Shown here in pieces: positions 1,603 to 42,837 of a stretch of DNA of 64,000 nucleotides. Source of the DNA: a virus. Every line of letters begins with the position of its first letter. Position 1 is the first letter of the stretch. The translations under genes and the position numbers were made by a program. The stretch lies in IMG/VR virus record IMGVR_UViG_3300032298_001038, positions 32,001 to 96,000 of that record; one strand, 5' to 3'. Below the pieces are notes generated by a model that was not told the DNA's origin, did not search any database, and was given only the letters and a program-made list of their open reading frames with translations.

Positions 1603-1872
1603 CTATTTCGACCGGAAGCCGAATATGCCTTTAATAAACCGCACAGTGCCGCGCAGCAAAAGATACAGCCACGCGATAAAGCCGCTGATAGCAAAAAAAA
1701 CAATTGCCGGGACGCTCACGAATACCGGCCAGAGTTCCTTTAAGTTTACCTGACGCAGCGTTAACCACACACGCATCCACGGCGTACGATTCGGACTATC
1801 ATCGGGAATTGGCGGGATTACAGGCTGCGGGTCGGTCTTTTTGGGTTTTAACCAGCCGTCAATCCAACTCAT
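1603..1872 (-). CDS. Small membrane protein
   Basis: 89-aa ORF with one long hydrophobic segment; ATGA overlap with upstream gene. Confidence 0.65.
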   Translation of the reverse strand: MSWIDGWLKPKKTDPQPVIPPIPDDSPNRTPWMRVWLTLRQVNLKELWPVFVSVPAIVFFAISGFIAWLYLLLRGTVRFIKGIFGFRSK

Positions 1873-3836
1873 TTCGGCCTCCCAAACACTGTGTTCATGA
1901 AACTATCGCCGTAGCGTCCAATGACTTGGTCGACCATCGGCTCTTCTTCCATTTCATTGTTCATGGCTTTCATGGCCAGTTGATACCGGTAGTTGGGATC
2001 AAGTGTCGCCATGTAGCGCTGCTGGTTGATTTTGGCGTTGCGCATGAAGTCGCCGCGCTGTTTCACCTGCATTAACTGCTCTTGGATGTTTTCGGCCACT
2101 GTTTTGTCGTAGTTGTATGTCAGCGGCCGGTTTAACCCGTAAGAGTTGTATAGCGCGGTGGCATATGCGCTCCGGGGCTGACGATATGCGGCTTTGACAG
2201 ACTCAGGGATCGCGGTTGGCTCGACGTGGAACCGGAACTTCGTCGGCTTGTGCGTAATTCCCTTGTGGTACGGCTTCGGGTCGTCTACGTGCCAGTCTTT
2301 AGGCGCTTTAGCCATGAGCCGCCGCAAGATTTCAGTTTTGTGCGCGTACCTTTTGTTATCTGAATGGTCTTTAGCCGCGCGGAGTTCGTCGAGAATGCGC
2401 GCTTGGGATTCCGCCTGCTTCTTTTGCTCTTCTTGCTCGTCTGGCTGCTGGGGGTTCGGTAACTGCTGCCCTGACGGCGGAAGTGCGGGCGGAGGAACAA
2501 CACCGAAAGCCACGTCGTTTGTTACCGGCGGAGGCATTTCGGGCGGCGCAGTCAGGTCTTCGGCTAGTTCTGGCGGCTTTGGCGGTTTGGGAACTGGCGG
2601 AAGTGCAGGATTGTTGGCTGCTTTTTCAATCGCTTCTACTTTTTTGTAGTAGGACGCGTCTTCTTGCAGATGATCTTTGGCAATTTCTTTGGCGACTTGA
2701 CCATTGTTTGTGTGTTCGTGCTCATGCTGCGCTCCTGCGGCTAATGCTTTCTGAGAAATTTCCCGATCGGGAACATTGTCGGCTTTTCCACCCGGTAACA
2801 GGTCTTTTTGTCCCGAGCGGGAAAGTTTTGTTCCCGTACGGGCAAATTTTGCGGCTTTCTTTAACGCCGGCGCCAATAATGCTTTAATGTCTGGCCCCAT
2901 ATAGTCGGCGCCTTCGGGCAGTCCATGCGAAAGCGTGACCACAGCGTCAGAACCAACACTAGCGTTAAAGTTTCCGGGTTTGAGTTTGTGCTTGGGCAGT
3001 TCCAGATAATGCTCGTGCTGCCATCCTTCGCGCGGATCGTTACCTAAAGCGCGGAAAGCGGTTGGTTTGATTTTCACGCCGAGTTCTTCGAATAACTCAC
3101 GCGCAGCAGCCTGTTCTGGTGTTTCGCCCGTTTCGATACCGCCACCGATAAATCGCCGTTTGCCGATGTTTTCCGGCCACTTCGAGTTATTGAGCGTTTC
3201 CATCAAATACTGGTCTTTGTACGGCACGACGACGCGCACACGGGGCTGCGGGCTTTTAGCGGCGGCGGCTTTGCGCACACTATTGGCCTGCAACACGCTT
3301 TTCCGGCGCACGGCAACAGTAATGTGGAACGGGTGGCCATTTACGAACGGCTGCAACCCGTAACTCTTGCGAATAGCCGACAACATGGGCGACGAGACTT
3401 GCAGCGCCCATAACTTGCTGACGCCGTCGACATTCCGGGGGGTGATCTCTTTCAGGTGGCCGAGGGAGTAGCCAACCATGTGCCCGCGTTCGTTGATATT
3501 CTCCGGGCCGATCTTTTTGACTTCATCGGCAGTCATGACGGAGATATGCGCGTTCAAGACGTCGCTGGCTACGTTGGGCACGTTCATGGTGCCTGCCAGC
3601 GGAAGTTCGGCCCCGGGGGCAGTCATCGCGTCGTAGATGCCCCGGACAAGCGCGTTCGGGACGGAGAGAAGAAGCCAGCCGCTTTTGGCGACATACAGCC
3701 GGCCGGCGAGGGCGTGGCTGGTGGCGGCTTGTTTTTCATTACGCGCAAGCCAGCCGACAGCGTTGCCGATGCTGTATTCGCGTTGGGAGTTCAGCGGCTC
3801 GCGCCATGAACCGTCAAGAATAGAAAAGCCGTCCAT
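1869..3836 (-). CDS. Multidomain protein: 2H phosphoesterase + NUDIX hydrolase + DUF5661-like
   Basis: Two HxS/T motifs (NAHISV, PFHITV); canonical Nudix box GGGIETGETPEQAAARELFEELG; EHEHT...AKEIAKDHLQEDASYY resembles DUF5661 (from memory). Confidence 0.85.
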   Translation of the reverse strand: MDGFSILDGSWREPLNSQREYSIGNAVGWLARNEKQAATSHALAGRLYVAKSGWLLLSVPNALVRGIYDAMTAPGAELPLAGTMNVPNVASDVLNAHISVMTADEVKKIGPENINERGHMVGYSLGHLKEITPRNVDGVSKLWALQVSSPMLSAIRKSYGLQPFVNGHPFHITVAVRRKSVLQANSVRKAAAAKSPQPRVRVVVPYKDQYLMETLNNSKWPENIGKRRFIGGGIETGETPEQAAARELFEELGVKIKPTAFRALGNDPREGWQHEHYLELPKHKLKPGNFNASVGSDAVVTLSHGLPEGADYMGPDIKALLAPALKKAAKFARTGTKLSRSGQKDLLPGGKADNVPDREISQKALAAGAQHEHEHTNNGQVAKEIAKDHLQEDASYYKKVEAIEKAANNPALPPVPKPPKPPELAEDLTAPPEMPPPVTNDVAFGVVPPPALPPSGQQLPNPQQPDEQEEQKKQAESQARILDELRAAKDHSDNKRYAHKTEILRRLMAKAPKDWHVDDPKPYHKGITHKPTKFRFHVEPTAIPESVKAAYRQPRSAYATALYNSYGLNRPLTYNYDKTVAENIQEQLMQVKQRGDFMRNAKINQQRYMATLDPNYRYQLAMKAMNNEMEEEPMVDQVIGRYGDSFMNTVFGRPK

Positions 3837-3852
3837 GGCAAACCCGTAACGA

Positions 3853-4053
3853 TTACTGACGGGTCATGACGGCTGTGGCGGCAGTTTTTTCAATACTCTG
3901 CCGGGTGTGTTCTGCGCCGTGAACATGGGCTGACAAAAACATCACCCAGCCGCATAGAAAAGTCATCACCCACGCCATGAGGCTCATCTGATTACGAATG
4001 TGTTGGTCGATCATCGTTGTTGGCATTGTCGTGAGGGCAGTGGAGTTCATCAC
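3853..4053 (-). CDS. Small membrane protein
   Basis: 66-aa ORF with one hydrophobic segment; true start uncertain (overlaps upstream gene). Confidence 0.45.
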   Translation of the reverse strand: MMNSTALTTMPTTMIDQHIRNQMSLMAWVMTFLCGWVMFLSAHVHGAEHTRQSIEKTAATAVMTRQ

Positions 4054-4372
4054 GGTCCCTTTCGTGATTGATGATGACTTTAATACCAGCGCCGGCCAGA
4101 AGCGAGATCAAAACGTCTGTGATCGTTGACCCGCCCATGCCTGCCAGCACGCAAATTCCTATTAATCCGTGAACGTTGGCGGCTTCTCGGTAGTTTTGAT
4201 ACCAAATCAGCGAAATGGCGAGGCCCAGAAAGCCCGAATTAAGCATAGCGCTGACAATGGCTAGTTTAGAAAGTTTGCGGCTAAAACGCAAAAGCGTCGC
4301 CAAGCCGGCAAACGCTGATACGCCAAAAGCCGCGGCAAATACGGATAAAGACACAATAGTCTCGTCGAACAT
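3992..4372 (-). CDS. Multi-pass membrane protein (possible holin)
   Basis: 126 aa, three to four hydrophobic helices, charged C-terminus. Confidence 0.6.
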   Translation of the reverse strand: MFDETIVSLSVFAAAFGVSAFAGLATLLRFSRKLSKLAIVSAMLNSGFLGLAISLIWYQNYREAANVHGLIGICVLAGMGGSTITDVLISLLAGAGIKVIINHERDRDELHCPHDNANNDDRPTHS

Positions 4373-4414: not shown

Positions 4415-4646
4415 GGTGTGTACCGCAAGCCCCCGCGATCCCCTTTCCGCGGGTCCGACCCTGACCGAAATCAGGGCTTCACGGCAACTTTCGAGGGCAA
4501 GAAATTTCGCCCTGTGTGGTATTTGCCGCGCCTCCGATCGTGTTCACGACTAAACCTGACCACGAAACCATGTTGCGCTCGCTGCATCCCTGCATTGGCC
4601 GCAACCCTAACCGACCGACCACCACGGCCAACTTACGGTACACACC
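4415..4646 (-). ncRNA. Candidate ~232-nt structured ncRNA of unknown family
   Basis: 16-bp terminal stem GGTGTGTACCGTAAGT/GCTTGCGGTACACACC (two G-U pairs only on minus strand) enclosing at least five hairpins; fills a 357-bp gap between convincing genes. Confidence 0.6.
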
Positions 4647-4655
4647 AATTTTACA

Positions 4656-4692
4656 AAATCGCAGTGCGGCGACGGAAATGCCGCTGCGATTT
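4656..4692 (-). terminator. Hairpin, possible terminator or processing site upstream of the candidate ncRNA
   Basis: AAATCGCAG/CTGCGATTT 9-bp stem plus inner CGGC/GCCG; only a short T run follows. Confidence 0.4.
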
Positions 4693-4729
4693 CCGCCATA
4701 ATTTGCCAAAGAACAAAAAACTGCGGCTA

Positions 4730-5185
4730 TTAGATATAGCGTCGCGGTTCGTCGCTGCATAGGCCGGCTGGTTCGGCGCTGGCGAGCCAGTCCGGCGGCG
4801 CGGTTTCAGGCAGCATCGCAATGGACCGGTCGATAAGTTCGTGCGGCGGCAACGTCCAGATAAATTGCGCGCTGGTCAGCGACATAAAACTATCGCTATT
4901 CAGAAAACAATGCGCATTAATGTTGCAGAGCGCGTCGATCGTTTCGGCGTTGTGGGCGCGGCACCAAATGCGCTGTTTAGACAGCATTGCCGGCGGAGCC
5001 ACGTTATACCCGCCGTCAAACGGTAGTAAAAAACTACCTTTGTGGAATATCACATCAATGCAGACGTGCCAGCCTTCTTTCAGGGCTTTTTGAACATACG
5101 CGAGCGTATTTTCAAGTTCAGGCTGGCGGCCGTCGGTGTTCCCCAGATGCGAAATAATAATGCCACTAAAAGCCTGCTTACGCAT
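4730..5185 (-). CDS. Degenerate GDPD/PLC-like phosphodiesterase-fold protein
   Basis: SHLGNTDG..PELENT.AYV..AL..GWHVCIDV aligns with the HRGN..ENxPxYI..AL..GxDVEIDV pattern, with substitutions at catalytic positions. Confidence 0.65.
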   Translation of the reverse strand: MRKQAFSGIIISHLGNTDGRQPELENTLAYVQKALKEGWHVCIDVIFHKGSFLLPFDGGYNVAPPAMLSKQRIWCRAHNAETIDALCNINAHCFLNSDSFMSLTSAQFIWTLPPHELIDRSIAMLPETAPPDWLASAEPAGLCSDEPRRYI

Positions 5186-5284
5186 TGCGACATCCCTGTC
5201 TTAACAGTCAACGCAAGATGTATAAATGGAAACGCCCATCGTACCACTGGCAGATGGGCGCGTCCACGCGGTTAGAAAATTTTG

Positions 5285-6319
5285 TCAGAGCACTTTCGCA
5301 GCGATCAGACAGCCGCGCGCAACCGCGTGAAGCGGGTCACTCGCGTGGCGAACTTCCTTGATCGGCAACGGGAAACCGTTCTCGACAATTTTTTGCTCGA
5401 ACATCTTGACGAACCCTTGCGCCTGCGTCGTGCCGCCGGCGAGGGCGATGAGCAGCGGATTCTTGAACTTGGGCAGCAGTTTGTGCCCGCGCAGTGCGTT
5501 CGCGAGTTGCTTCGTCGTATAGTCGATGAGCCGTTCGTAGTACGCACTCACCGCCGCGAGCACAGGATTGTCGTTCTGCTCGCCAATCACAAACTCGCCG
5601 TTCTCTTTCTCGGCCTGCACAACGCTGTCAGGCTCGCCGGTGGCGATGCCCGCCATGCGATCGATCCAGTCGCCGGACTTGGTGGTGGAGAACGTGACAG
5701 TCGGCTCGCCGTTGAGCATGACGCAGCAGTTCACCATACCAGCGCCCCACGAGAGCGCGACACCGGTGTAGTCGTCGTTCTCCAACTCCGAGTAGCACAG
5801 CGCTTCAGCCTCGTTGATGGCGCGGGCGCTGTAGCCTTGGCCATGAAGCACGGTCTTCACCACGTCTTCGTGATAGCCAACGTCAAACTCGTCGTCTTCT
5901 TGATCGACGGGCTGCGCGGGGATGCAGAACACCAGTTTCTCGTCAGGCTCGCTGGCGGTGCCGCACACCTGCTGAAGAATGTACGCCAGCACGCGCTTGG
6001 CTTCTTTTTCCTTGGGGCTAACTACGCCGCGGTACATCGGGCGCTTGGCAGAGTCATTGCGCTCGATCGCCTTCTCGATGGCGTCTTGGCCGAGAATGAT
6101 GAACGCGCCGTCGGCGTCCTTGACAAAAACTTTGCCTTGCAACCCCTTTTCGATCATCTTCGTCGCGACCGGAGTCGTGGGCTTGATAACAAAAAAAGCG
6201 TCACGGAAGTCTGTGTACTTCACGTAGCCAAACTTGTCGTCGCTCGTGTAACTCATCGGGGCTTCACCGTCGGAAGCCAAGACGATAAACGATGTACCGA
6301 CGTCTAAACCTTTCGCCAT
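5285..6319 (-). CDS. Actin-fold ATPase (MreB/ParM/Hsp70-like superfamily)
   Basis: GLDVGTS (phosphate-1), INEAEA (connect-1), SWGAGMVN (phosphate-2), LAGGTT (adenosine) motifs; 344 aa. Confidence 0.85.
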   Translation of the reverse strand: MAKGLDVGTSFIVLASDGEAPMSYTSDDKFGYVKYTDFRDAFFVIKPTTPVATKMIEKGLQGKVFVKDADGAFIILGQDAIEKAIERNDSAKRPMYRGVVSPKEKEAKRVLAYILQQVCGTASEPDEKLVFCIPAQPVDQEDDEFDVGYHEDVVKTVLHGQGYSARAINEAEALCYSELENDDYTGVALSWGAGMVNCCVMLNGEPTVTFSTTKSGDWIDRMAGIATGEPDSVVQAEKENGEFVIGEQNDNPVLAAVSAYYERLIDYTTKQLANALRGHKLLPKFKNPLLIALAGGTTQAQGFVKMFEQKIVENGFPLPIKEVRHASDPLHAVARGCLIAAKVL

Positions 6320-12016: not shown

Positions 12017-14092
12017 CTAGTTGTGCGATACTTTAAGTTCGGCTTTGTTACCTCGGCGGGTGTTAACCCAGCGACCTTTTTGGCCGCGGGCGCGATACTT
12101 TTTCAGCCATTCGTCGGCGACTTCTTCAGCCGTCTTCTCGGTCTTCTTTTTTTTCTTCTTGCTGCCAATCGGGCGGCACGAGTTTTCGCTGTACGGCGCT
12201 TTGCCCGGCGCGGGTTCATAGCCCTTCCAGCAGCGGGCTTCTTTCGCCCACTGGTGTGCAAGATTGTAGCCGTGCTCGACCGACGTTTTTTGTCGCATAC
12301 CTAACAACCCGGAACCCATTTCTTTAGCCCAATTAGTCCATGTCGGTTTTGAATACTCTTCACCCGTTCGCAGGTGCTGGTTAAGCGCGCTATCTTGGTC
12401 GGCGTATTGCGAACTCAATGTGCCAACGTTCTTTGCGGCCAGTTGCGCTTCTTCGGGGGACAAACCCATATTCTCCAGCATCCGCGGCGTCATACCGCCC
12501 ATGCTATTCAACATTTGAATTTGACCAAGTTGCTCTCTGCCCGCTGCAACTTGCTTGGCCGCACCTTCGCGCGACGGCACCGTCGCCCACCCGCCGCCGC
12601 CTTTAATTTGCGCAACCGGGTCTTTTGCTAGCAAAATTTGCTTCTGCTGGTCTGTCAGTTTTTCAGGCACCATGCCCATCGACTTGCCGATGCCACTTAC
12701 AGCGTCAGCCATGAAGTTCTGCGCGCCCTGACCAAACATACCGCCACCAGCGCCAGCCAGACCTGCGGCGCCAAGGCCCAGCAAGCCAAGCATTCCCATT
12801 CCCCCGCCACCACCGAACATACTGCCGAGTATGCCCAGAAGACCGCCACCCAAGCCAATCCCCATCATCCACTTCATCGGCTCGGGCATGTTTTGATAAC
12901 CCTGCATGACACTCTGCAACATGCCGCCCTGCTCTTGCGGGCCAGCGCCGGGATTCTGCTGCCGCAACTTCGCAAACTCTTCACGGATGTAGGCGTTGCC
13001 GGCCTTGTCCACCTCGGCCTGAAAAGCCTTGGCCTGCGGCGTGTCTTTGCCGGCATGTAAGTCAGCCATGCCTTGTTTCATTTCCGGATTGCTGTCCATC
13101 ATCTGTTGCACATGCTGCTGCGCCAGTTGCTTTTTCTCGGCGTCCGGCATGTCGCTATTCAACTTGGCCATGACGTCCGTGTTCGCCTGCTGCTTCTGGT
13201 CCGGCGTCATCGGCGTCGCGGGTTTGGCGGCGCCGTCGGTCGGCGTGTTTTGTGTTGGCTGCGCGCCCGGCTGTTGCTGCGTGGCGGCCGTTTGTTGCGG
13301 CGCGCCTTGCTCGGGAGCGGGCGTCGGTGCGGTCTCTGTCCCGCCAGATAATTGTCGTACACCTTCGAGTGCCGCGGGCAATGCGGCCTCGGTGCCAAGC
13401 GTGGCTGCGGTACCGCCAGCAGTCATCGCGCCACCGCCGGCCGCTGTTAATCCAGCCGCGGCGGCGACAGGAACAGCCGCTGCCGTCGCAGTCGCGCCGC
13501 CAGCAATACCCATTGCCGTTTGCCCCCAGCCCTTAAGGCTTTCTTCGCCGCGCTCTGTGCTCGTCTGCGTCGTCCACGGGTTGTACCACCGATCAAGCAC
13601 GTCAACGTACGACCCGTAGCCTGTGTGACTTTTCGGCCCCGGCGTTGTCTGACTTTGTTGCGCGCGCATCTGCGCGAATGTTTGCGGGTCGACTTGTTGC
13701 CGGTTTGTCGCCAGTGCGGGTTGCGCCGGCTGACCTGATTGCGCAGCAGCCACAGACGCGGCATTTTGCTGTGCACGAAGTTGCGCCGTGGTTGGCTGCG
13801 CAGCGGGGGCCGCGGGCGTTTGCCGCGAAAAAATAGAATTGTTGCCAGCCGGTGCCGCGCCAATCGAAGCAGACGCTAACCCAGTGGGTTTAGGCTGCGG
13901 GGGCATCAACGGCTTCGCGCCGCCGCCCGGCTTGTTAAACGAGAACGATTGCGCCTGTTCAGTCAGGCCTTTCGGCATCGGCGCGGCCGGTTTCGGCGCC
14001 GTTACGCTTTTCGGTAATCCGGCGCCCGTTGGGTTGTCTGTGAGAAACGCATATTTGCGCAACGCCGATTGTACGTGCTTCGGAAGTGCCAT
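12017..14092 (-). CDS. Large Gln/Pro/Gly-rich putative virion protein
   Basis: 691 aa; Gly-zipper segments; K-x-A motifs (RKYAF, AKEAR, EKTAE); CWKGYEP module. Confidence 0.75.
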   Translation of the reverse strand: MALPKHVQSALRKYAFLTDNPTGAGLPKSVTAPKPAAPMPKGLTEQAQSFSFNKPGGGAKPLMPPQPKPTGLASASIGAAPAGNNSIFSRQTPAAPAAQPTTAQLRAQQNAASVAAAQSGQPAQPALATNRQQVDPQTFAQMRAQQSQTTPGPKSHTGYGSYVDVLDRWYNPWTTQTSTERGEESLKGWGQTAMGIAGGATATAAAVPVAAAAGLTAAGGGAMTAGGTAATLGTEAALPAALEGVRQLSGGTETAPTPAPEQGAPQQTAATQQQPGAQPTQNTPTDGAAKPATPMTPDQKQQANTDVMAKLNSDMPDAEKKQLAQQHVQQMMDSNPEMKQGMADLHAGKDTPQAKAFQAEVDKAGNAYIREEFAKLRQQNPGAGPQEQGGMLQSVMQGYQNMPEPMKWMMGIGLGGGLLGILGSMFGGGGGMGMLGLLGLGAAGLAGAGGGMFGQGAQNFMADAVSGIGKSMGMVPEKLTDQQKQILLAKDPVAQIKGGGGWATVPSREGAAKQVAAGREQLGQIQMLNSMGGMTPRMLENMGLSPEEAQLAAKNVGTLSSQYADQDSALNQHLRTGEEYSKPTWTNWAKEMGSGLLGMRQKTSVEHGYNLAHQWAKEARCWKGYEPAPGKAPYSENSCRPIGSKKKKKKTEKTAEEVADEWLKKYRARGQKGRWVNTRRGNKAELKVSHN

Positions 14093-19531: not shown

Positions 19532-19607
19532 GCGGCACCTCCATGTGATAGAAAGCCATGGGTCCCGTTGTTTATTTTACTTTCCGCACTCCGCAAATTG
19601 TTAACTT

Positions 19608-21198: not shown

Positions 21199-23904
21199 TT
21201 ACATCACGCGGGCGCCCATTGTGGAGTTGAAGTTCGTGGGGCCTTGGCTCAGTCCGGCCGCGGGAGACGCCGACGGCATCGGCCCGGGCGCCGGAGACTG
21301 GACCGGCATCGAGTTCTGTAATGCAGGCGCCGGAGGGACACTGGCGCCCATTGTCGCGCTGGCATCCGCCGGGCCTTGCGGAATTACCGGCGATTGCGGT
21401 GCAGGATTCTTCGCGGCTTCAGCCTTGGCGGCCTCGACCAAGTCAGGCTGCATTGTCGCGTCGGTTGAAATACCCTTTTCAGGAGACCCGGCGCCTTGCT
21501 GTTTCGAGGCCAGATGCGCCTCTAACAGCGCACGAATCTTATCGCCGCCGAAGTAGCCAGCCGCACCGCCAGCCGCCCCGCCGACGGCCGCGCCACCAGC
21601 CAAGCCACGCAGCGCGCCCATCAAACGAGACCGACGCTTACGCCGGCCAGTCATCGGGTCTGTTTCGTGTCCCGGAGCCAGCGCGCCAAACAACGCACCG
21701 CCAGCGCCGAGCGCGGCGGCACCCGCACCTGCACCAAGGCCAGCGTCGCCCAAGTTGGCTGTCTTTACTTCAGGCTTTTTCTTCTTGGCGTCGTTCTTGC
21801 CAGCACGGCTTCCCAGATACGCGGCGCCACCAAGGAGACCTGCTGTTCCCAGACCAGCCGCAGCATACGGCGTGTACTTCGAGTTCATGATCTGCTGGAG
21901 CATTCCCGGCTCATCGCGCAGCGCCATATTTCCCAGCGCGCCAAACAACGCACCGCCAGCACCAGCAGCGCCTACGCCGCCTGTGATCTTGGCCCATTGC
22001 GGCAGCGCGTTCAGGCCTTCAGCAGCCCGACCGGCGTAACCCTTCGCGGCGTCTAACCCAGTGGTTGCAGCGCCAGAAGCGTTACGCCCCAGCCGTTGCA
22101 GCCGCGCCATCATGCGGAGATACGTGCTGATGGCCTGCTTTTCCATCGGATTGTTCGTGGCCTTCGTCAACGCGTACCAGTTCATACTTGCAGCCTTGGG
22201 CATCTCGTAGTCTCCTTCGTCTTCTTCACGTTGCGGGCGCTTCTTTTTCTTGTTACGGCGCGATAAATAATCAGCCAACGCAATGGCACCCAAACCACCG
22301 GCGCCAATCGCCGCATAGGGAGCGTAGGGCTTAAGTTGGTCGAGCATGGACGGCGGCGGGGGAGCGTCGGGCTTGAGCCACTTGAGCAAGTTACTGCCCG
22401 CGCCCATGCCAGCCCCCACAGCGTCCTGACCCTTCTGGCCAATGAAACTCAGCGCACTGCCGATGCCCTTACCGGCACCGATGCCCATGCGCTTGGCGGT
22501 ATCGAGGTTCTTGTTGAAGTACTCCCAATACACCTTGTCGTTCAGTTTTTCTTCCGCCGAACGGGGCCGAGAGACAGCCCCAGTGCCAGACGACGCCGAC
22601 ATGTCGGGGATCATCGCCGGCGGACGCCACTTGCCGCCGCCACTTGCAGCCGGAGCACCAGCAGGAGCCGGCGCATCAGCCATGTTGATTGGCAGGCCAG
22701 TCGTGGGCGAGATCGGCATGCTGGCGCTCGACGGGTCAAAGCCCGGAGGCGCGCTCATGGCCAGACCGGGCGAGGGCGGAATGCTTGCGCCCATCGTGGC
22801 ACTGGTGTTCAAGTCAGCATGCTTCTTGAGCAGTTCAGCGTAAGCCGCCATCTTCTCGGCCAGCGTCAGCGTTGTGTTATTTAAAAGCGCGTGGGCTTCC
22901 TTCTTTTTCGTCGCAGGAATGTTACCGTCTTCGTCTTCTGCCGGACCCACAAGCGCGTCGGCTAACGCTTTGCCGCCAGCGTGACCAGCCATGCCGCCGA
23001 ACGTGCCACCCACGCCGGCGCCCAGCGTCGCAGCATTACCGACGTTCGACAAACCTTGGTAACTCTTCGGCGCGCCGGTCAGGCCGATGACGGCGCCGCC
23101 ACCAAGACCAGCACCCACGGGAAGTCCGGCGCCAATGCCGAGTCCAGTTCCGGCGCCCATGAGCATTCCGCGGGCCATGCCGCGCAGTTTGTTCTTGGAG
23201 GTAACCGCGCCAGCAGCACCACCCACTGCGCTCCCGAGAACGCCAGTGCGCAAAAGGTAATTCAGCAGCAATTGGGTTTCGGGTTTCATCGCCTGCTTCT
23301 CGTTCTCGCTCATGGAAACATCCTTGTTAATACTCGATGATTTGTGTCGTTCATTATAGCGGGCACGTGCATCCGCCATATCAGAAGTTCGCTTACTAAA
23401 ACGTTCCGTGGGCCTGTAATATCTGGCCCGCGCGGTGGCTACGATCTTGTTGTTATCCCAGCCCAGAAAGTCGGCTTGGTACTGCGGGTCGGCTTCTAAG
23501 TCTCGCTTCGCGGCGCCCTCGGGCATTCTCCGCATGAGTTCTTCTAAACCTTCGTTCTTGGCTTCTCGGTCCATGCCGGCTGCAATGGCGGCCAAGCCAC
23601 CGGCGCCCAAGCCGCCGATCAGCGCGCCCATTCCCGAGTAACCTTTGCCGTCTGAACCGTGTGCAGTACCACCGATTGCGCTGCCGATTCCAGCCCCAAG
23701 TAACCCCGCCGGCACGCCAAAGATCAGGCCAGTCTTCAGGGGGCTGGCCATGAGGTCGGGAATCGGCGTCCCGTAACTCTGGAAGATGCGCGGCAGCCAG
23801 CGTTTCTTGCCGGCTTCCAGTGCGTCCTCCTCGTGGGGCGCTAACGTTCGGTGCGCCGAGATGTCAGGAATACCGCTCTCGGCACGTTTAATTTTCTCAC
23901 TCAT
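21199..23904 (-). CDS. Large Gly-zipper putative virion polyprotein
   Basis: 901 aa; repeated Gly-zipper modules separated by EKQAM, KKEAH, EKMAA, KKHAD, PKAAS, EKQAI, VKTAN. Confidence 0.78.
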   Translation of the reverse strand: MSEKIKRAESGIPDISAHRTLAPHEEDALEAGKKRWLPRIFQSYGTPIPDLMASPLKTGLIFGVPAGLLGAGIGSAIGGTAHGSDGKGYSGMGALIGGLGAGGLAAIAAGMDREAKNEGLEELMRRMPEGAAKRDLEADPQYQADFLGWDNNKIVATARARYYRPTERFSKRTSDMADARARYNERHKSSSINKDVSMSENEKQAMKPETQLLLNYLLRTGVLGSAVGGAAGAVTSKNKLRGMARGMLMGAGTGLGIGAGLPVGAGLGGGAVIGLTGAPKSYQGLSNVGNAATLGAGVGGTFGGMAGHAGGKALADALVGPAEDEDGNIPATKKKEAHALLNNTTLTLAEKMAAYAELLKKHADLNTSATMGASIPPSPGLAMSAPPGFDPSSASMPISPTTGLPINMADAPAPAGAPAASGGGKWRPPAMIPDMSASSGTGAVSRPRSAEEKLNDKVYWEYFNKNLDTAKRMGIGAGKGIGSALSFIGQKGQDAVGAGMGAGSNLLKWLKPDAPPPPSMLDQLKPYAPYAAIGAGGLGAIALADYLSRRNKKKKRPQREEDEGDYEMPKAASMNWYALTKATNNPMEKQAISTYLRMMARLQRLGRNASGAATTGLDAAKGYAGRAAEGLNALPQWAKITGGVGAAGAGGALFGALGNMALRDEPGMLQQIMNSKYTPYAAAGLGTAGLLGGAAYLGSRAGKNDAKKKKPEVKTANLGDAGLGAGAGAAALGAGGALFGALAPGHETDPMTGRRKRRSRLMGALRGLAGGAAVGGAAGGAAGYFGGDKIRALLEAHLASKQQGAGSPEKGISTDATMQPDLVEAAKAEAAKNPAPQSPVIPQGPADASATMGASVPPAPALQNSMPVQSPAPGPMPSASPAAGLSQGPTNFNSTMGARVM

Positions 23905-32545: not shown

Positions 32546-32914
32546 TTAATTGTTTTCGGCGCGGGATTGCAGAAACGACGAATAGACTTTCGCCGCTGCG
32601 GCGAGTTCTTTTCCCATCGCTTTGACTTCGTCGAGGATGTCACACACTTCCTGCGCGTCGTCGTCTGAAAATTCTTCGATTTCGATCTTGGCTTTGACGA
32701 GCCGGATGTGGGCGCGTGAGCGACGGATAGTCTCAAACTGAACGTCCATGTCGATTTTTTCAAGCGCCTCTGCAATAGCCTTGGCGATCGGATTGCTGTC
32801 CTTGCTCTGCTCGACGAGAGATTCAATGTCTCGCTCGATCTGCCGAAGCCGAATCAGCCCTTCATCGATCAAATCCAAAATCTGTGTGCGCTCGTTATCG
32901 GTGAATTGCATCAT
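32546..32914 (-). CDS. Coiled-coil hypothetical protein
   Basis: 122 aa, GGAGG RBS. Confidence 0.72.
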   Translation of the reverse strand: MMQFTDNERTQILDLIDEGLIRLRQIERDIESLVEQSKDSNPIAKAIAEALEKIDMDVQFETIRRSRAHIRLVKAKIEIEEFSDDDAQEVCDILDEVKAMGKELAAAAKVYSSFLQSRAENN

Positions 32915-35243: not shown

Positions 35244-35248
35244 ATAAG

Positions 35249-35602
35249 TGGAGCCGGCGGGAATCGAACCCGCGTCCAGAAACGTTTCCAGTAAGAACGT
35301 CTACATGCGTAGCCAGTTATGTGTCACCAACTGGCAATGCTATCCGCACACTTAGCGGAGTCAGGCGGTTTACCGCCATCTCGCCCGATTACTTTGCCGG
35401 ACCGACGCAGGTGGCTTACCACCATCAACCTGATTGGGCAATGAGGCTCAGGTCGCCCCACTCGCGGTCCTGACTAGGTCAGGCAGCGAGGGCCGGAGCA
35501 GAAGCGCCGGTTAGAAACTTAATCGGCTTTTAACGTGGCCAACCGATCAACCACGGCATGCAATCCAAACCTTCTCCGTCCTGTCGATACCAGTACGGCC
35601 CC
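35249..35602 (-). ncRNA. ssrA: tmRNA
   Basis: 5' GGGGCCG..GGTATCGAC, 3' GCGGGTTCGATTCCCGCCGGCTCCA, G3-U70 pair; tag ORF (A)GASAPALAA* at 35508-35479. Confidence 0.93.
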
Positions 35603-37576: not shown

Positions 37577-37589
37577 GTGGCTCCTTTAG

Positions 37590-37665
37590 TAGGGCGGGTT
37601 GGAGTCGAACCAACCTATGGGCACCTTATAAGAGTGCTGGATGCAACCGGCTTACCTTCCGCCCC
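37590..37665 (-). tRNA. trnI: tRNA-Ile(TAT)
   Basis: GGGGCGG...GCACT CTTATAA GGTGC...GTTGG TTCGACT CCAAC CCGCCCT A; atypical A8 and weak D stem. Confidence 0.8.
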
Positions 37666-42815: not shown

Positions 42816-42837
42816 AGAAACCTCCGTGTTTAAATAA

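Follow-up and report, generated by a model that had tools for sequence, protein, structure and literature searches.

In the 357-nt gap separating the genes of a 151-aa and a 126-aa protein of a large phage (ORFs at 4730-5185 and 3992-4372, respectively), a highly structured segment raises the question of whether it acts as an RNA and, if so, what that RNA does. The source was a complete virus record of 198,312 bp with direct terminal repeats, and the stretch analyzed here, referred to as the window, comprised 64,000 nt corresponding to bases 32001-96000 of that record; positions below are those of the window unless otherwise noted. In the initial annotation, which was made by inspection of the sequence, the segment had been interpreted as a novel phage RNA of the minus strand, which is the direction of the genes in the region around it, or alternatively as a DNA-level element such as an origin or packaging signal.

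Homologues, strand and covariation

With the proteins of the flanking genes used as anchors, 93 related IMG/VR loci were fetched, and each of them was found to contain a full-length homologue of the RNA in the equivalent position and orientation. Forty-two distinct homologues together with the window constituted alignment A1 (43 sequences), a covariance model (R1) was built, and 57 sequences, consisting of 56 distinct homologues and the window, were realigned as alignment A2. R1 scored the window RNA at 234.8 bits as the sole copy in the genome, and the homologues ranged from 215 to 234 nt in length.

The minus-strand RNA, read from 4646 to 4415, was predicted to fold with a minimum free energy (MFE) of -108.4 kcal/mol (z = -5.0), which was equaled by none of 200 shuffles. 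As the plus strand (-84.5 kcal/mol) also folded better than its shuffles with a similar z value (-5.0), the energy alone could not settle the strand. RNAalifold on A1 yielded 65 pairs, 46 of which showed compensatory changes. When a 70-pair structure was evaluated on A1, 96.8% of the cells were paired, in comparison with 35-43% when the 3' partners were slid, and 49 of the 70 pairs changed on both sides, values that were reached in none of 500 shuffles. In A2, 96.3% of the cells were paired and double changes were seen in 51/70 pairs, in agreement with A1. Furthermore, G-U pairs occupied columns 215:224 of A2 in 56/56 homologues and columns 20:232 in 52/56, and were nearly invariant in columns 146:166. 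Because such pairs are impossible on the other strand, the RNA was assigned to the minus strand, and the strand that had been proposed from two G-U pairs of the terminal stem was thus correct.

About 60 nucleotides were invariant, and these were concentrated in the junctions and the hairpin and internal loops, while the stems covaried. A mutual-information scan for additional tertiary pairs returned, beyond the known helices, only signals that tracked the clades.

Two other readings, namely a small protein-coding gene and an element acting at the level of DNA (origin, packaging signal, recombination site or MITE), could draw support from the better-than-shuffled folding of the plus strand and from the ORFs of 118 and 93 aa that overlap the region. 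These readings were, however, already contradicted by the invariant G-U pairs, which exist only in the minus-strand RNA, by its lower MFE, and by the compensatory changes through which the pairing is maintained. The RNA was present in a single copy in the genome by both BLAST and the covariance model, which led us to reject a MITE or other repeat. The lengths of the homologues fell into all three mod-3 classes without period-3 variation, and the two overlapping ORFs had no Pfam or PHROG match; the coding-type variation of these ORFs, which the initial annotation had named as the observation that would overturn an RNA, was thus absent. We regard a DNA element or a coding sequence as scarcely credible.

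Architecture of the RNA

The elements of the RNA are given below in the 5' to 3' direction of the minus strand.

4415-4646, minus strand: whole structured RNA (about 225-232 nt), in which P1 closes a seven-way junction carrying P2-P7
4630-4646, minus strand: 5' strand of P1; compensatory changes in 14/16 pairs
4613-4629, minus strand: P2 hairpin (5 bp) with a near-invariant 7-nt loop, UGGUGGU; 100% paired, 4/5 pairs covary
4618-4622, minus strand: 5' strand of the pseudoknot, in the P2 loop; partner 4516-4520
4606-4612, minus strand: J2/3, GGUUAGG; GGUUAG invariant and last G near-invariant (43 sequences)
4571-4605, minus strand: P3 stalk of variable length (arms of 13-17 and 18-21 nt), bearing a conserved apical hairpin
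4585-4592, minus strand: L3 apex, CAGGGAUG, of the form CA-N-GGA-N-G; GGA in the loop, hairpin closed by C-G and A-U
4538-4565, minus strand: P4 hairpin with an internal loop and with invariant CG-GGUCAG and CACG; 5/9 pairs invariant, 3 covary
4531-4535, minus strand: J4/5, GG-N-GG; G residues invariant
4481-4529, minus strand: P5 (7 bp), internal loop (GAAU-R-CCACAC opposite GAAAGU) and P5a hairpin
4516-4520, minus strand: 3' strand of the pseudoknot, ACCAC, on the 5' side of the P5 internal loop; partner 4618-4622
4458-4477, minus strand: P6 hairpin of variable sequence, frequently capped by UUCG; 7/8 pairs covary
4432-4453, minus strand: P7 hairpin; 4/7 pairs covary
4439-4446, minus strand: loop L7 with invariant GGGGA (GGGGAUC when the next two bases, which are paired, are included)
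4415-4431, minus strand: 3' strand of P1; about half of the homologues have a U-rich tract 3' of it

The helices all radiate from a single junction, which is formed by the closing stem P1 and six hairpins and is accompanied by a pseudoknot from a hairpin loop to an internal loop. The inner 11 pairs of P1 were almost always formed, while the outer five failed in 9-12 of the 56 homologues of A2. In P5, which was paired in 100% of the sequences, 6/7 pairs covaried, as did 5/6 in P5a. The 5-bp pseudoknot was likewise paired in 100% of 56 sequences, and three of its five pairs covaried (U-A/C-G/U-G, G-C/A-U and C-G/U-A), the change from G-C to A-U being seen in locus L032. In addition to the GGA of L3, a second invariant GGA was located in L7 (4439-4441).

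The terminal stem of the initial annotation (4415-4431 with 4630-4646) proved to be real and to covary, and the same held for four of its five proposed inner helices, namely GCGGCAA/TTGCCGT, AGGGC/GCCCT, CCCTGA/TCAGGG and CCCGCG/CGCGGG. The fifth, TTGGCCG/CGGCCAA, was not a conserved pairing, and GGCCG (4629-4625) instead pairs with CGGUC (4617-4613) to form the 5-bp P2. The P3 hairpin with its invariant apex, the P4 hairpin and the pseudoknot (4622-4618 with 4520-4516) had been missed.

In a sub-clade of eight loci (L137, L103, L081, L131, L179, L069, L161 and L097), an extra small hairpin was inserted in the 5' strand of P1, a TGATAAAT box lay about 20 nt further upstream, and the downstream start region carried GGGAGCC and GGGAUG.

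Relation to known RNA families

Searches of Rfam 15 returned nothing for the window at gathering thresholds, for the region at E<=10, or for nine divergent homologous loci at E<=5; the families covered included RNase P, SRP, 6S, tmRNA, group I/II introns, riboswitches, CsrB/Rsm, ROOL/GOLLD, raiA, HEARO and Y RNA. This result agreed with the initial annotation, in which the conserved cores of RNase P, SRP, 6S, group I introns and small ribozymes could not be recognized.

Individual candidates were also considered on structural grounds. The strings GAAAGU and GGCUU resemble CR-I and CR-V of RNase P, but covariation paired both of them locally, in P5 and P1, and neither a P4-type long-range helix nor a model match was found. 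The order of the helices did not fit a group I intron, and the RNA is intergenic instead of being embedded in a gene. The sole likeness to SRP and 6S RNAs was a shared GGUCAGGU string, with no match to either model. A retron msr/msd was rejected as no RVT_1 match was found in the 198-kb genome, and a bacterial Y RNA as neither a TROVE (Ro/Rsr) match in the genome nor an Rfam Y RNA match was obtained.

A new ribozyme, for example one that cleaves itself to process the 5' end of an operon mRNA, or an RNA of other catalytic activity would be compatible with the size, the pseudoknot and the many invariant unpaired nucleotides, all of which are within the range of catalytic RNAs. Since no known ribozyme model matched, the order of helices and the local pairing of GAAAGU were unlike group I introns and RNase P, and no conserved candidate cleavage site was evident, we consider catalysis very unlikely.

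Within IMG/VR, the family comprised about 95 contigs, all from one clade of uncultured phages of about 200 kb whose genomes also contain csrA and genes for tmRNA, tRNAs and an RNA polymerase of their own. Among cultured phages, neither a DNA match to the RNA nor a homologue of the 126-aa membrane protein encoded downstream was found, and when 185,579 species genomes were searched with a pattern, nhmmer and the covariance model showed each of the 29 matches to be spurious. The segment is virtually certain to be a real RNA from an undescribed family, and of the two interpretations offered initially, the novel minus-strand phage RNA stands, on the strength of the covariation, the lack of any Rfam match and its residence in a phage genome of 198 kb that has direct terminal repeats, and the DNA element is not supported.

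Putative transcription unit and neighboring genes

The following features surround the RNA.

4656-4692, minus strand: upstream hairpin (9 bp perfect, plus inner stem) followed by UUUUGU; likely terminator of the preceding gene
4648-4653, minus strand: -10-like hexamer TAAAAT (TTGTAAAAT in the window); putative promoter
3992-4372, minus strand: 126-aa membrane protein, holin-like; about three hydrophobic segments as judged by eye, C-terminal tail charged
1869-3836, minus strand: 655-aa protein with 2H-SAK phosphoesterase, NUDIX and DUF5661 domains; next large gene after the 126-aa gene

The separate upstream hairpin, which had been noted initially, was indeed present, and a hairpin also occurred at the equivalent place in the relatives. 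Directly after it lies the -10-like box, which in the relatives reads TGnTAAAAT, TTGTATAAT or TGTTAAACT; a TA-N-A-[A/C]-T hexamer was in register in 45 of 53 distinct homologues, the register being defined such that, with a start 7 nt after the hexamer, 10-16 nt of the P1 strand remain (12 nt in 27/45). A start 7 nt past the box of the window would fall at about 4641 and leave a transcribed P1 of about 10-13 bp. In that case, some of the outermost 'pairs' of P1 would be a coincidence between an A-rich promoter and a U-rich tail, and the length of 16 bp originally given for the terminal stem would have to be reduced by the outermost 3-5 pairs, which may be untranscribed on the 5' side. A scan with the sigma-70 consensus found no promoter, nor was a -35 element seen at the usual spacing, and the box was recognized only through the comparison of relatives. 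A conserved CTTTGACAA/CTTTGGCAA box was also observed at 4703-4711 (minus strand) and at the equivalent place in many relatives; the hairpin separates it from the -10-like box, and at 32-45 nt upstream of the latter it is too distant for a normal -35 element.

On the 3' side, at least four U residues within 9 nt after P1 were found in 27/45 homologues. The tract was too inconsistent among the homologues for P1 to be regarded as a terminator, and at this locus, to which the scan was confined, no terminator hairpin was seen between P1 and the start codon.

The gene of the 126-aa membrane protein type started 14-56 nt 3' of the RNA in all of the 174 loci with enough sequence, while the 151-aa gene was the upstream neighbor in only 33 of 55 distinct variants. 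With a constant downstream linkage and a variable upstream neighbor, the RNA belongs with the operon on its 3' side, a relationship that had not been remarked in the initial annotation, and judging from this arrangement it most likely constitutes a 5' leader. The occurrence of the -10-like box at a fixed register directly after a terminator-like hairpin also argues for a leader.

The 126-aa protein matched neither Pfam nor PHROG, its 253 metagenomic homologues carried no useful name, and its likeness to holins came solely from language-model features (score of 0.90). Its gene lacks an AGGAG-type Shine-Dalgarno (SD) sequence, unlike most genes of the window. For the protein encoded by the next large gene, the 2H-SAK and DUF5661 domains were retained in the equivalent gene of 7/7 divergent relatives, DUF5661 being below the threshold in three of the seven (20.7, 25.4 and 26.7 bits against a cut-off of 27). 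As for the middle domain in these seven relatives, none was recognized in four, a NUDIX domain was found in one and a P-loop kinase in one. Such a combination of 2H-SAK and DUF5661 with a variable middle domain, as at L053:3596-5443 and L041:3523-5832, is as expected of a modular RNA-end-healing enzyme.

Upstream, the 151-aa protein (4730-5185, minus strand) corresponded to phrog_34507 and had only distant relatives, with 24-30% identity, in Synechococcus phages. These relatives adjoin HAD hydrolase genes, and one of the relatives of the 151-aa protein was annotated as a glycerophosphoryl diester phosphodiesterase. A 344-aa actin-fold protein was encoded at 5285-6319 (minus strand), with a match to Pfam Volactin (1.5e-58) across its full length.

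The position of the RNA in a 5' UTR and its aptamer-like fold, in which some 60 invariant nucleotides occupy junctions and internal loops, the stems covary and the core is locked by a pseudoknot, are also what a riboswitch-like sensor would display. The core might bind a small molecule, perhaps a nucleotide-derived signal connected with the 2H phosphoesterase/NUDIX enzyme, and its folding may decide the formation of P1 and thereby transcription or translation, possibly with CsrA acting on top. The constant partner operon, with a membrane protein and a nucleotide/RNA-end phosphoesterase, and the U-rich tract after P1 in about half of the members would accord with such a sensor. Nevertheless, typical switching helices do not resemble P1, which is stable and has a length of 10-17 bp; the distance from the RNA to the start codon is not constant, and neither a conserved alternative pairing nor a clear expression platform was found. 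In addition, no ligand could be named and no Rfam riboswitch was similar. A sensor of this kind therefore appears quite unlikely to us.

CsrA-type motif and phage-encoded CsrA

The apical hairpin of P3 read CA[G/U]GGA[U/C/A]G in 57/57 sequences, the variation being restricted to the two N positions of the published RsmE consensus (A/U)CANGGANG(U/A) (PMC6849547). L3 thus displays the features of a CsrA/RsmE motif, with GGA in the loop and C-G and A-U closing pairs, none of which had been described in the initial annotation, where the promoter-like box was absent as well. In some relatives, UACAGGGAUGUA coincided with 11 of the 12 positions of the CsrA SELEX consensus RUACARGGAUGU, in which GGA is also located in a hairpin loop (PMC4347634). 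The invariance of L3 was not circular, because the motif was present in the protein-anchored set, and a search pattern omitting L3 found no member without it, returning only five extra loci, none of which matched the model at full length. GGA was invariant at exactly two positions of the alignment, L3 and L7, both of which are hairpin loops, and the L7 GGA (4439-4441) would provide a second site for the other face of a CsrA dimer. The variable length of the P3 stalk would be easier to reconcile with a loop presented to an external partner than with tertiary docking at a fixed site.

The genome itself contains csrA (PF02599), encoding a 67-aa protein at genome positions 156245-156448 (minus strand), outside the window. 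Its score of 49.6 bits was above the cut-off, and 63-72 bits were obtained in 5/5 complete relatives; the protein could be aligned with CsrA of B. subtilis (1T3O), the N-terminal MLVLSRK being part of the alignment. As all members of the RNA family belong to one phage clade having csrA as a core gene, this co-occurrence has little discriminating power. The csrA gene is closely flanked by other genes, so that no non-coding gap adjoins it, and a homologue was located at L217:1459-1662.

Motifs of the same type were found at other genes, as listed below.

5190-5199, minus strand: ACAGGGAUGU, CsrA-type motif at the ribosome-binding site of the upstream 151-aa gene
5190-5199, 13173-13182, 19537-19546, 23318-23327, 32742-32751 and 42820-42829, minus strand: ACA-N-GGA-N-GU at 4-10 nt before start codons
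genome positions 6584, 7215 and 20910: further ACA-N-GGA-N-GU sites before start codons

The sequence ACANGGANGT was expected 1.4 times in the window and observed 8 times, and of its 18 occurrences in the genome, 14 were on the gene strand and 9 at 4-10 nt before a start codon. Ordinary SD sequences (GGAGG) partly confound this enrichment; the flanking ACA is not explained by them. ACA-N-GGA-N-GU was present at no fewer than nine genes, often within a GAC...GUC hairpin around the SD sequence, and a related CA-R-GGA core recurred upstream of the start of the 151-aa gene in relatives. On the basis of these sites, the genes bearing the motif at their start may form a regulon of the phage CsrA. 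When PHROGs were searched with five genes having ACANGGANGU ribosome-binding sites, a single match was obtained, which was protease-like.

At the gene downstream of the RNA, GGA was present near the start (-16 to +5) in only 17/54 homologues and was not seen in the window; an overlap of a GGA site with the SD sequence or start codon, and with it the usual mechanism of SD occlusion, is therefore not conserved. Folding of 55 loci gave a mean unpaired probability of the ribosome-binding site of 0.40 with the leader and 0.47 without it, and the number of sites below 0.4 was 14/55 without and 30/55 with the leader. The effect was neither clear nor consistent enough to support sequestration of the SD sequence by the leader. 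Furthermore, GGA was not enriched in the RNA, which contains 5, dinucleotide shuffles giving 4.6 +/- 1.5 and the homologues a median of 6, and a CsrB-type sponge, which is characterized by many GGA, was accordingly rejected.

A stand-alone, trans-acting stable RNA, with its transcription start at P1 and freed by leaky termination or processing just past P1, has to be weighed against a leader at this point. Such an RNA could serve as a high-affinity two-site decoy for the CsrA of the phage or the host, or it could be the scaffold or RNA component of a different phage RNP. It would account for the promoter-like box directly after a terminator-like hairpin, for the long closing stem, which protects both ends as in stable RNAs, for the U-rich tract 3' of P1 in the 27/45 homologues, for the two invariant GGA loops, and for a complex conserved core of the kind typically seen in RNAs that are functional by themselves. 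On the other hand, the GGA content is unlike that of CsrB/RsmZ sponges, the U tract is missing in the other half of the homologues, the downstream linkage is absolute (174/174) while the upstream neighbor changes, and the membrane protein is the sole constant neighbor, leaving no other candidate gene for a partner protein. We consider a trans-acting role a doubtful yet reasonable possibility.

The best reading, which we favor tentatively while giving it less than an even chance, is a cis-acting leader that responds to CsrA. An RNA of about 225 nt would be transcribed from its own extended -10-type promoter and co-transcribed as the 5' leader of the small holin-like membrane gene and then the 2H-SAK phosphoesterase of the RNA-end-healing type. 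The pseudoknotted junction scaffold would present two invariant GGA loops, of which L3 is a perfect CsrA/RsmE consensus hairpin, and a dimer of the phage-encoded CsrA would bind the GGA loops of L3 and L7, thereby setting the level or timing of operon expression through mRNA stability, read-through past P1 or translation. Against the involvement of CsrA, it must be noted that short hairpins suffice for this protein, and the conserved core consisting of the seven-way junction, the pseudoknot and the approximately 60 invariant nucleotides is left over without explanation.

Comparison with known regulatory RNAs

CsrA/RsmE-regulated leaders such as those of glgC, hcnA and ColE7 cel (PMC2896534) resemble this RNA in being 5' leaders with a hairpin whose loop GGA fits (A/U)CANGGANG(U/A), in having a second GGA site and a cognate CsrA gene, and possibly in the lysis-related nature of the downstream gene; in the case of ColE7, CsrA represses the lysis gene via a stem-loop and the SD sequence (PMC2896534). 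The known leaders are, however, short and simple with one site over the SD sequence, whereas a 225-nt pseudoknotted seven-way junction is found here and the SD region is mostly devoid of GGA. Also unlike the known cases, the RNA and CsrA are both encoded by the phage. The likeness is one of functional analogy and not of homology. The role of phage-encoded CsrA in infection was described as untested as recently as 2025 (PMC11879866). If the link to CsrA is true, a concrete RNA target would for the first time be available for a CsrA encoded by a phage, and it would suggest that a lysis-type gene and an RNA-repair enzyme are timed post-transcriptionally.

The CsrB/CsrC and RsmX/Y/Z sponges would be comparable if the RNA is independently promoted, as they too carry GGA in hairpin loops and are able to sequester a CsrA dimer. 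They have many GGA and no complex tertiary core, in contrast to the two invariant GGA without enrichment, and without an Rfam match, of the RNA described here.

Lysine and cobalamin riboswitch aptamers are located in 5' UTRs and consist of helices radiating from a junction with invariant nucleotides, which is closed by P1 and supported by a long-range loop contact. The present RNA shares with them the 5' UTR position, the closing P1, the multi-helix junction and the long-range loop contact, but its P1 is much longer, no similarity in sequence or model was detected, and no expression platform or ligand was identified. Few RNAs combine a complex pseudoknotted fold with dozens of invariant unpaired nucleotides, and many of those characterized have turned out to be riboswitches, ribozymes or cores of RNPs. 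In the moaA leader, CsrA acts on a leader that contains a riboswitch. It is conceivable, if unlikely, that the core is a new aptamer or catalytic fold, and that a phage riboswitch or ribozyme sensing a nucleotide-derived signal, together with the phage CsrA, times the lysis-type membrane protein and the RNA-end-healing/NUDIX enzyme. Such a core, if it binds a ligand or catalyzes a reaction, would represent a new class of functional RNA, and its combination with CsrA would be the first complete RNA-plus-CsrA control circuit on a virus. From its constant position ahead of one gene and its CsrA-type hairpin, the RNA is probably a new viral gene-control RNA.

ROOL and GOLLD are ornate phage-associated RNAs of 500-800 nt; both have Rfam entries, and neither is linked to a single downstream gene. 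The present RNA is similar to them in that it is phage-borne, complex in fold, highly conserved and orphan, and resides in a tRNA-rich genome, and differs in its size of about 225 nt, its tie to one downstream gene and its failure to match either model. A tmRNA (tag GASAPALAA) and seven tRNA genes were located in the window at 35246-35602 and 9597-40286 (minus strand), and the tRNA-Ile(UAU) at 37589-37665 was called by ARAGORN and missed by Rfam at the gathering score.
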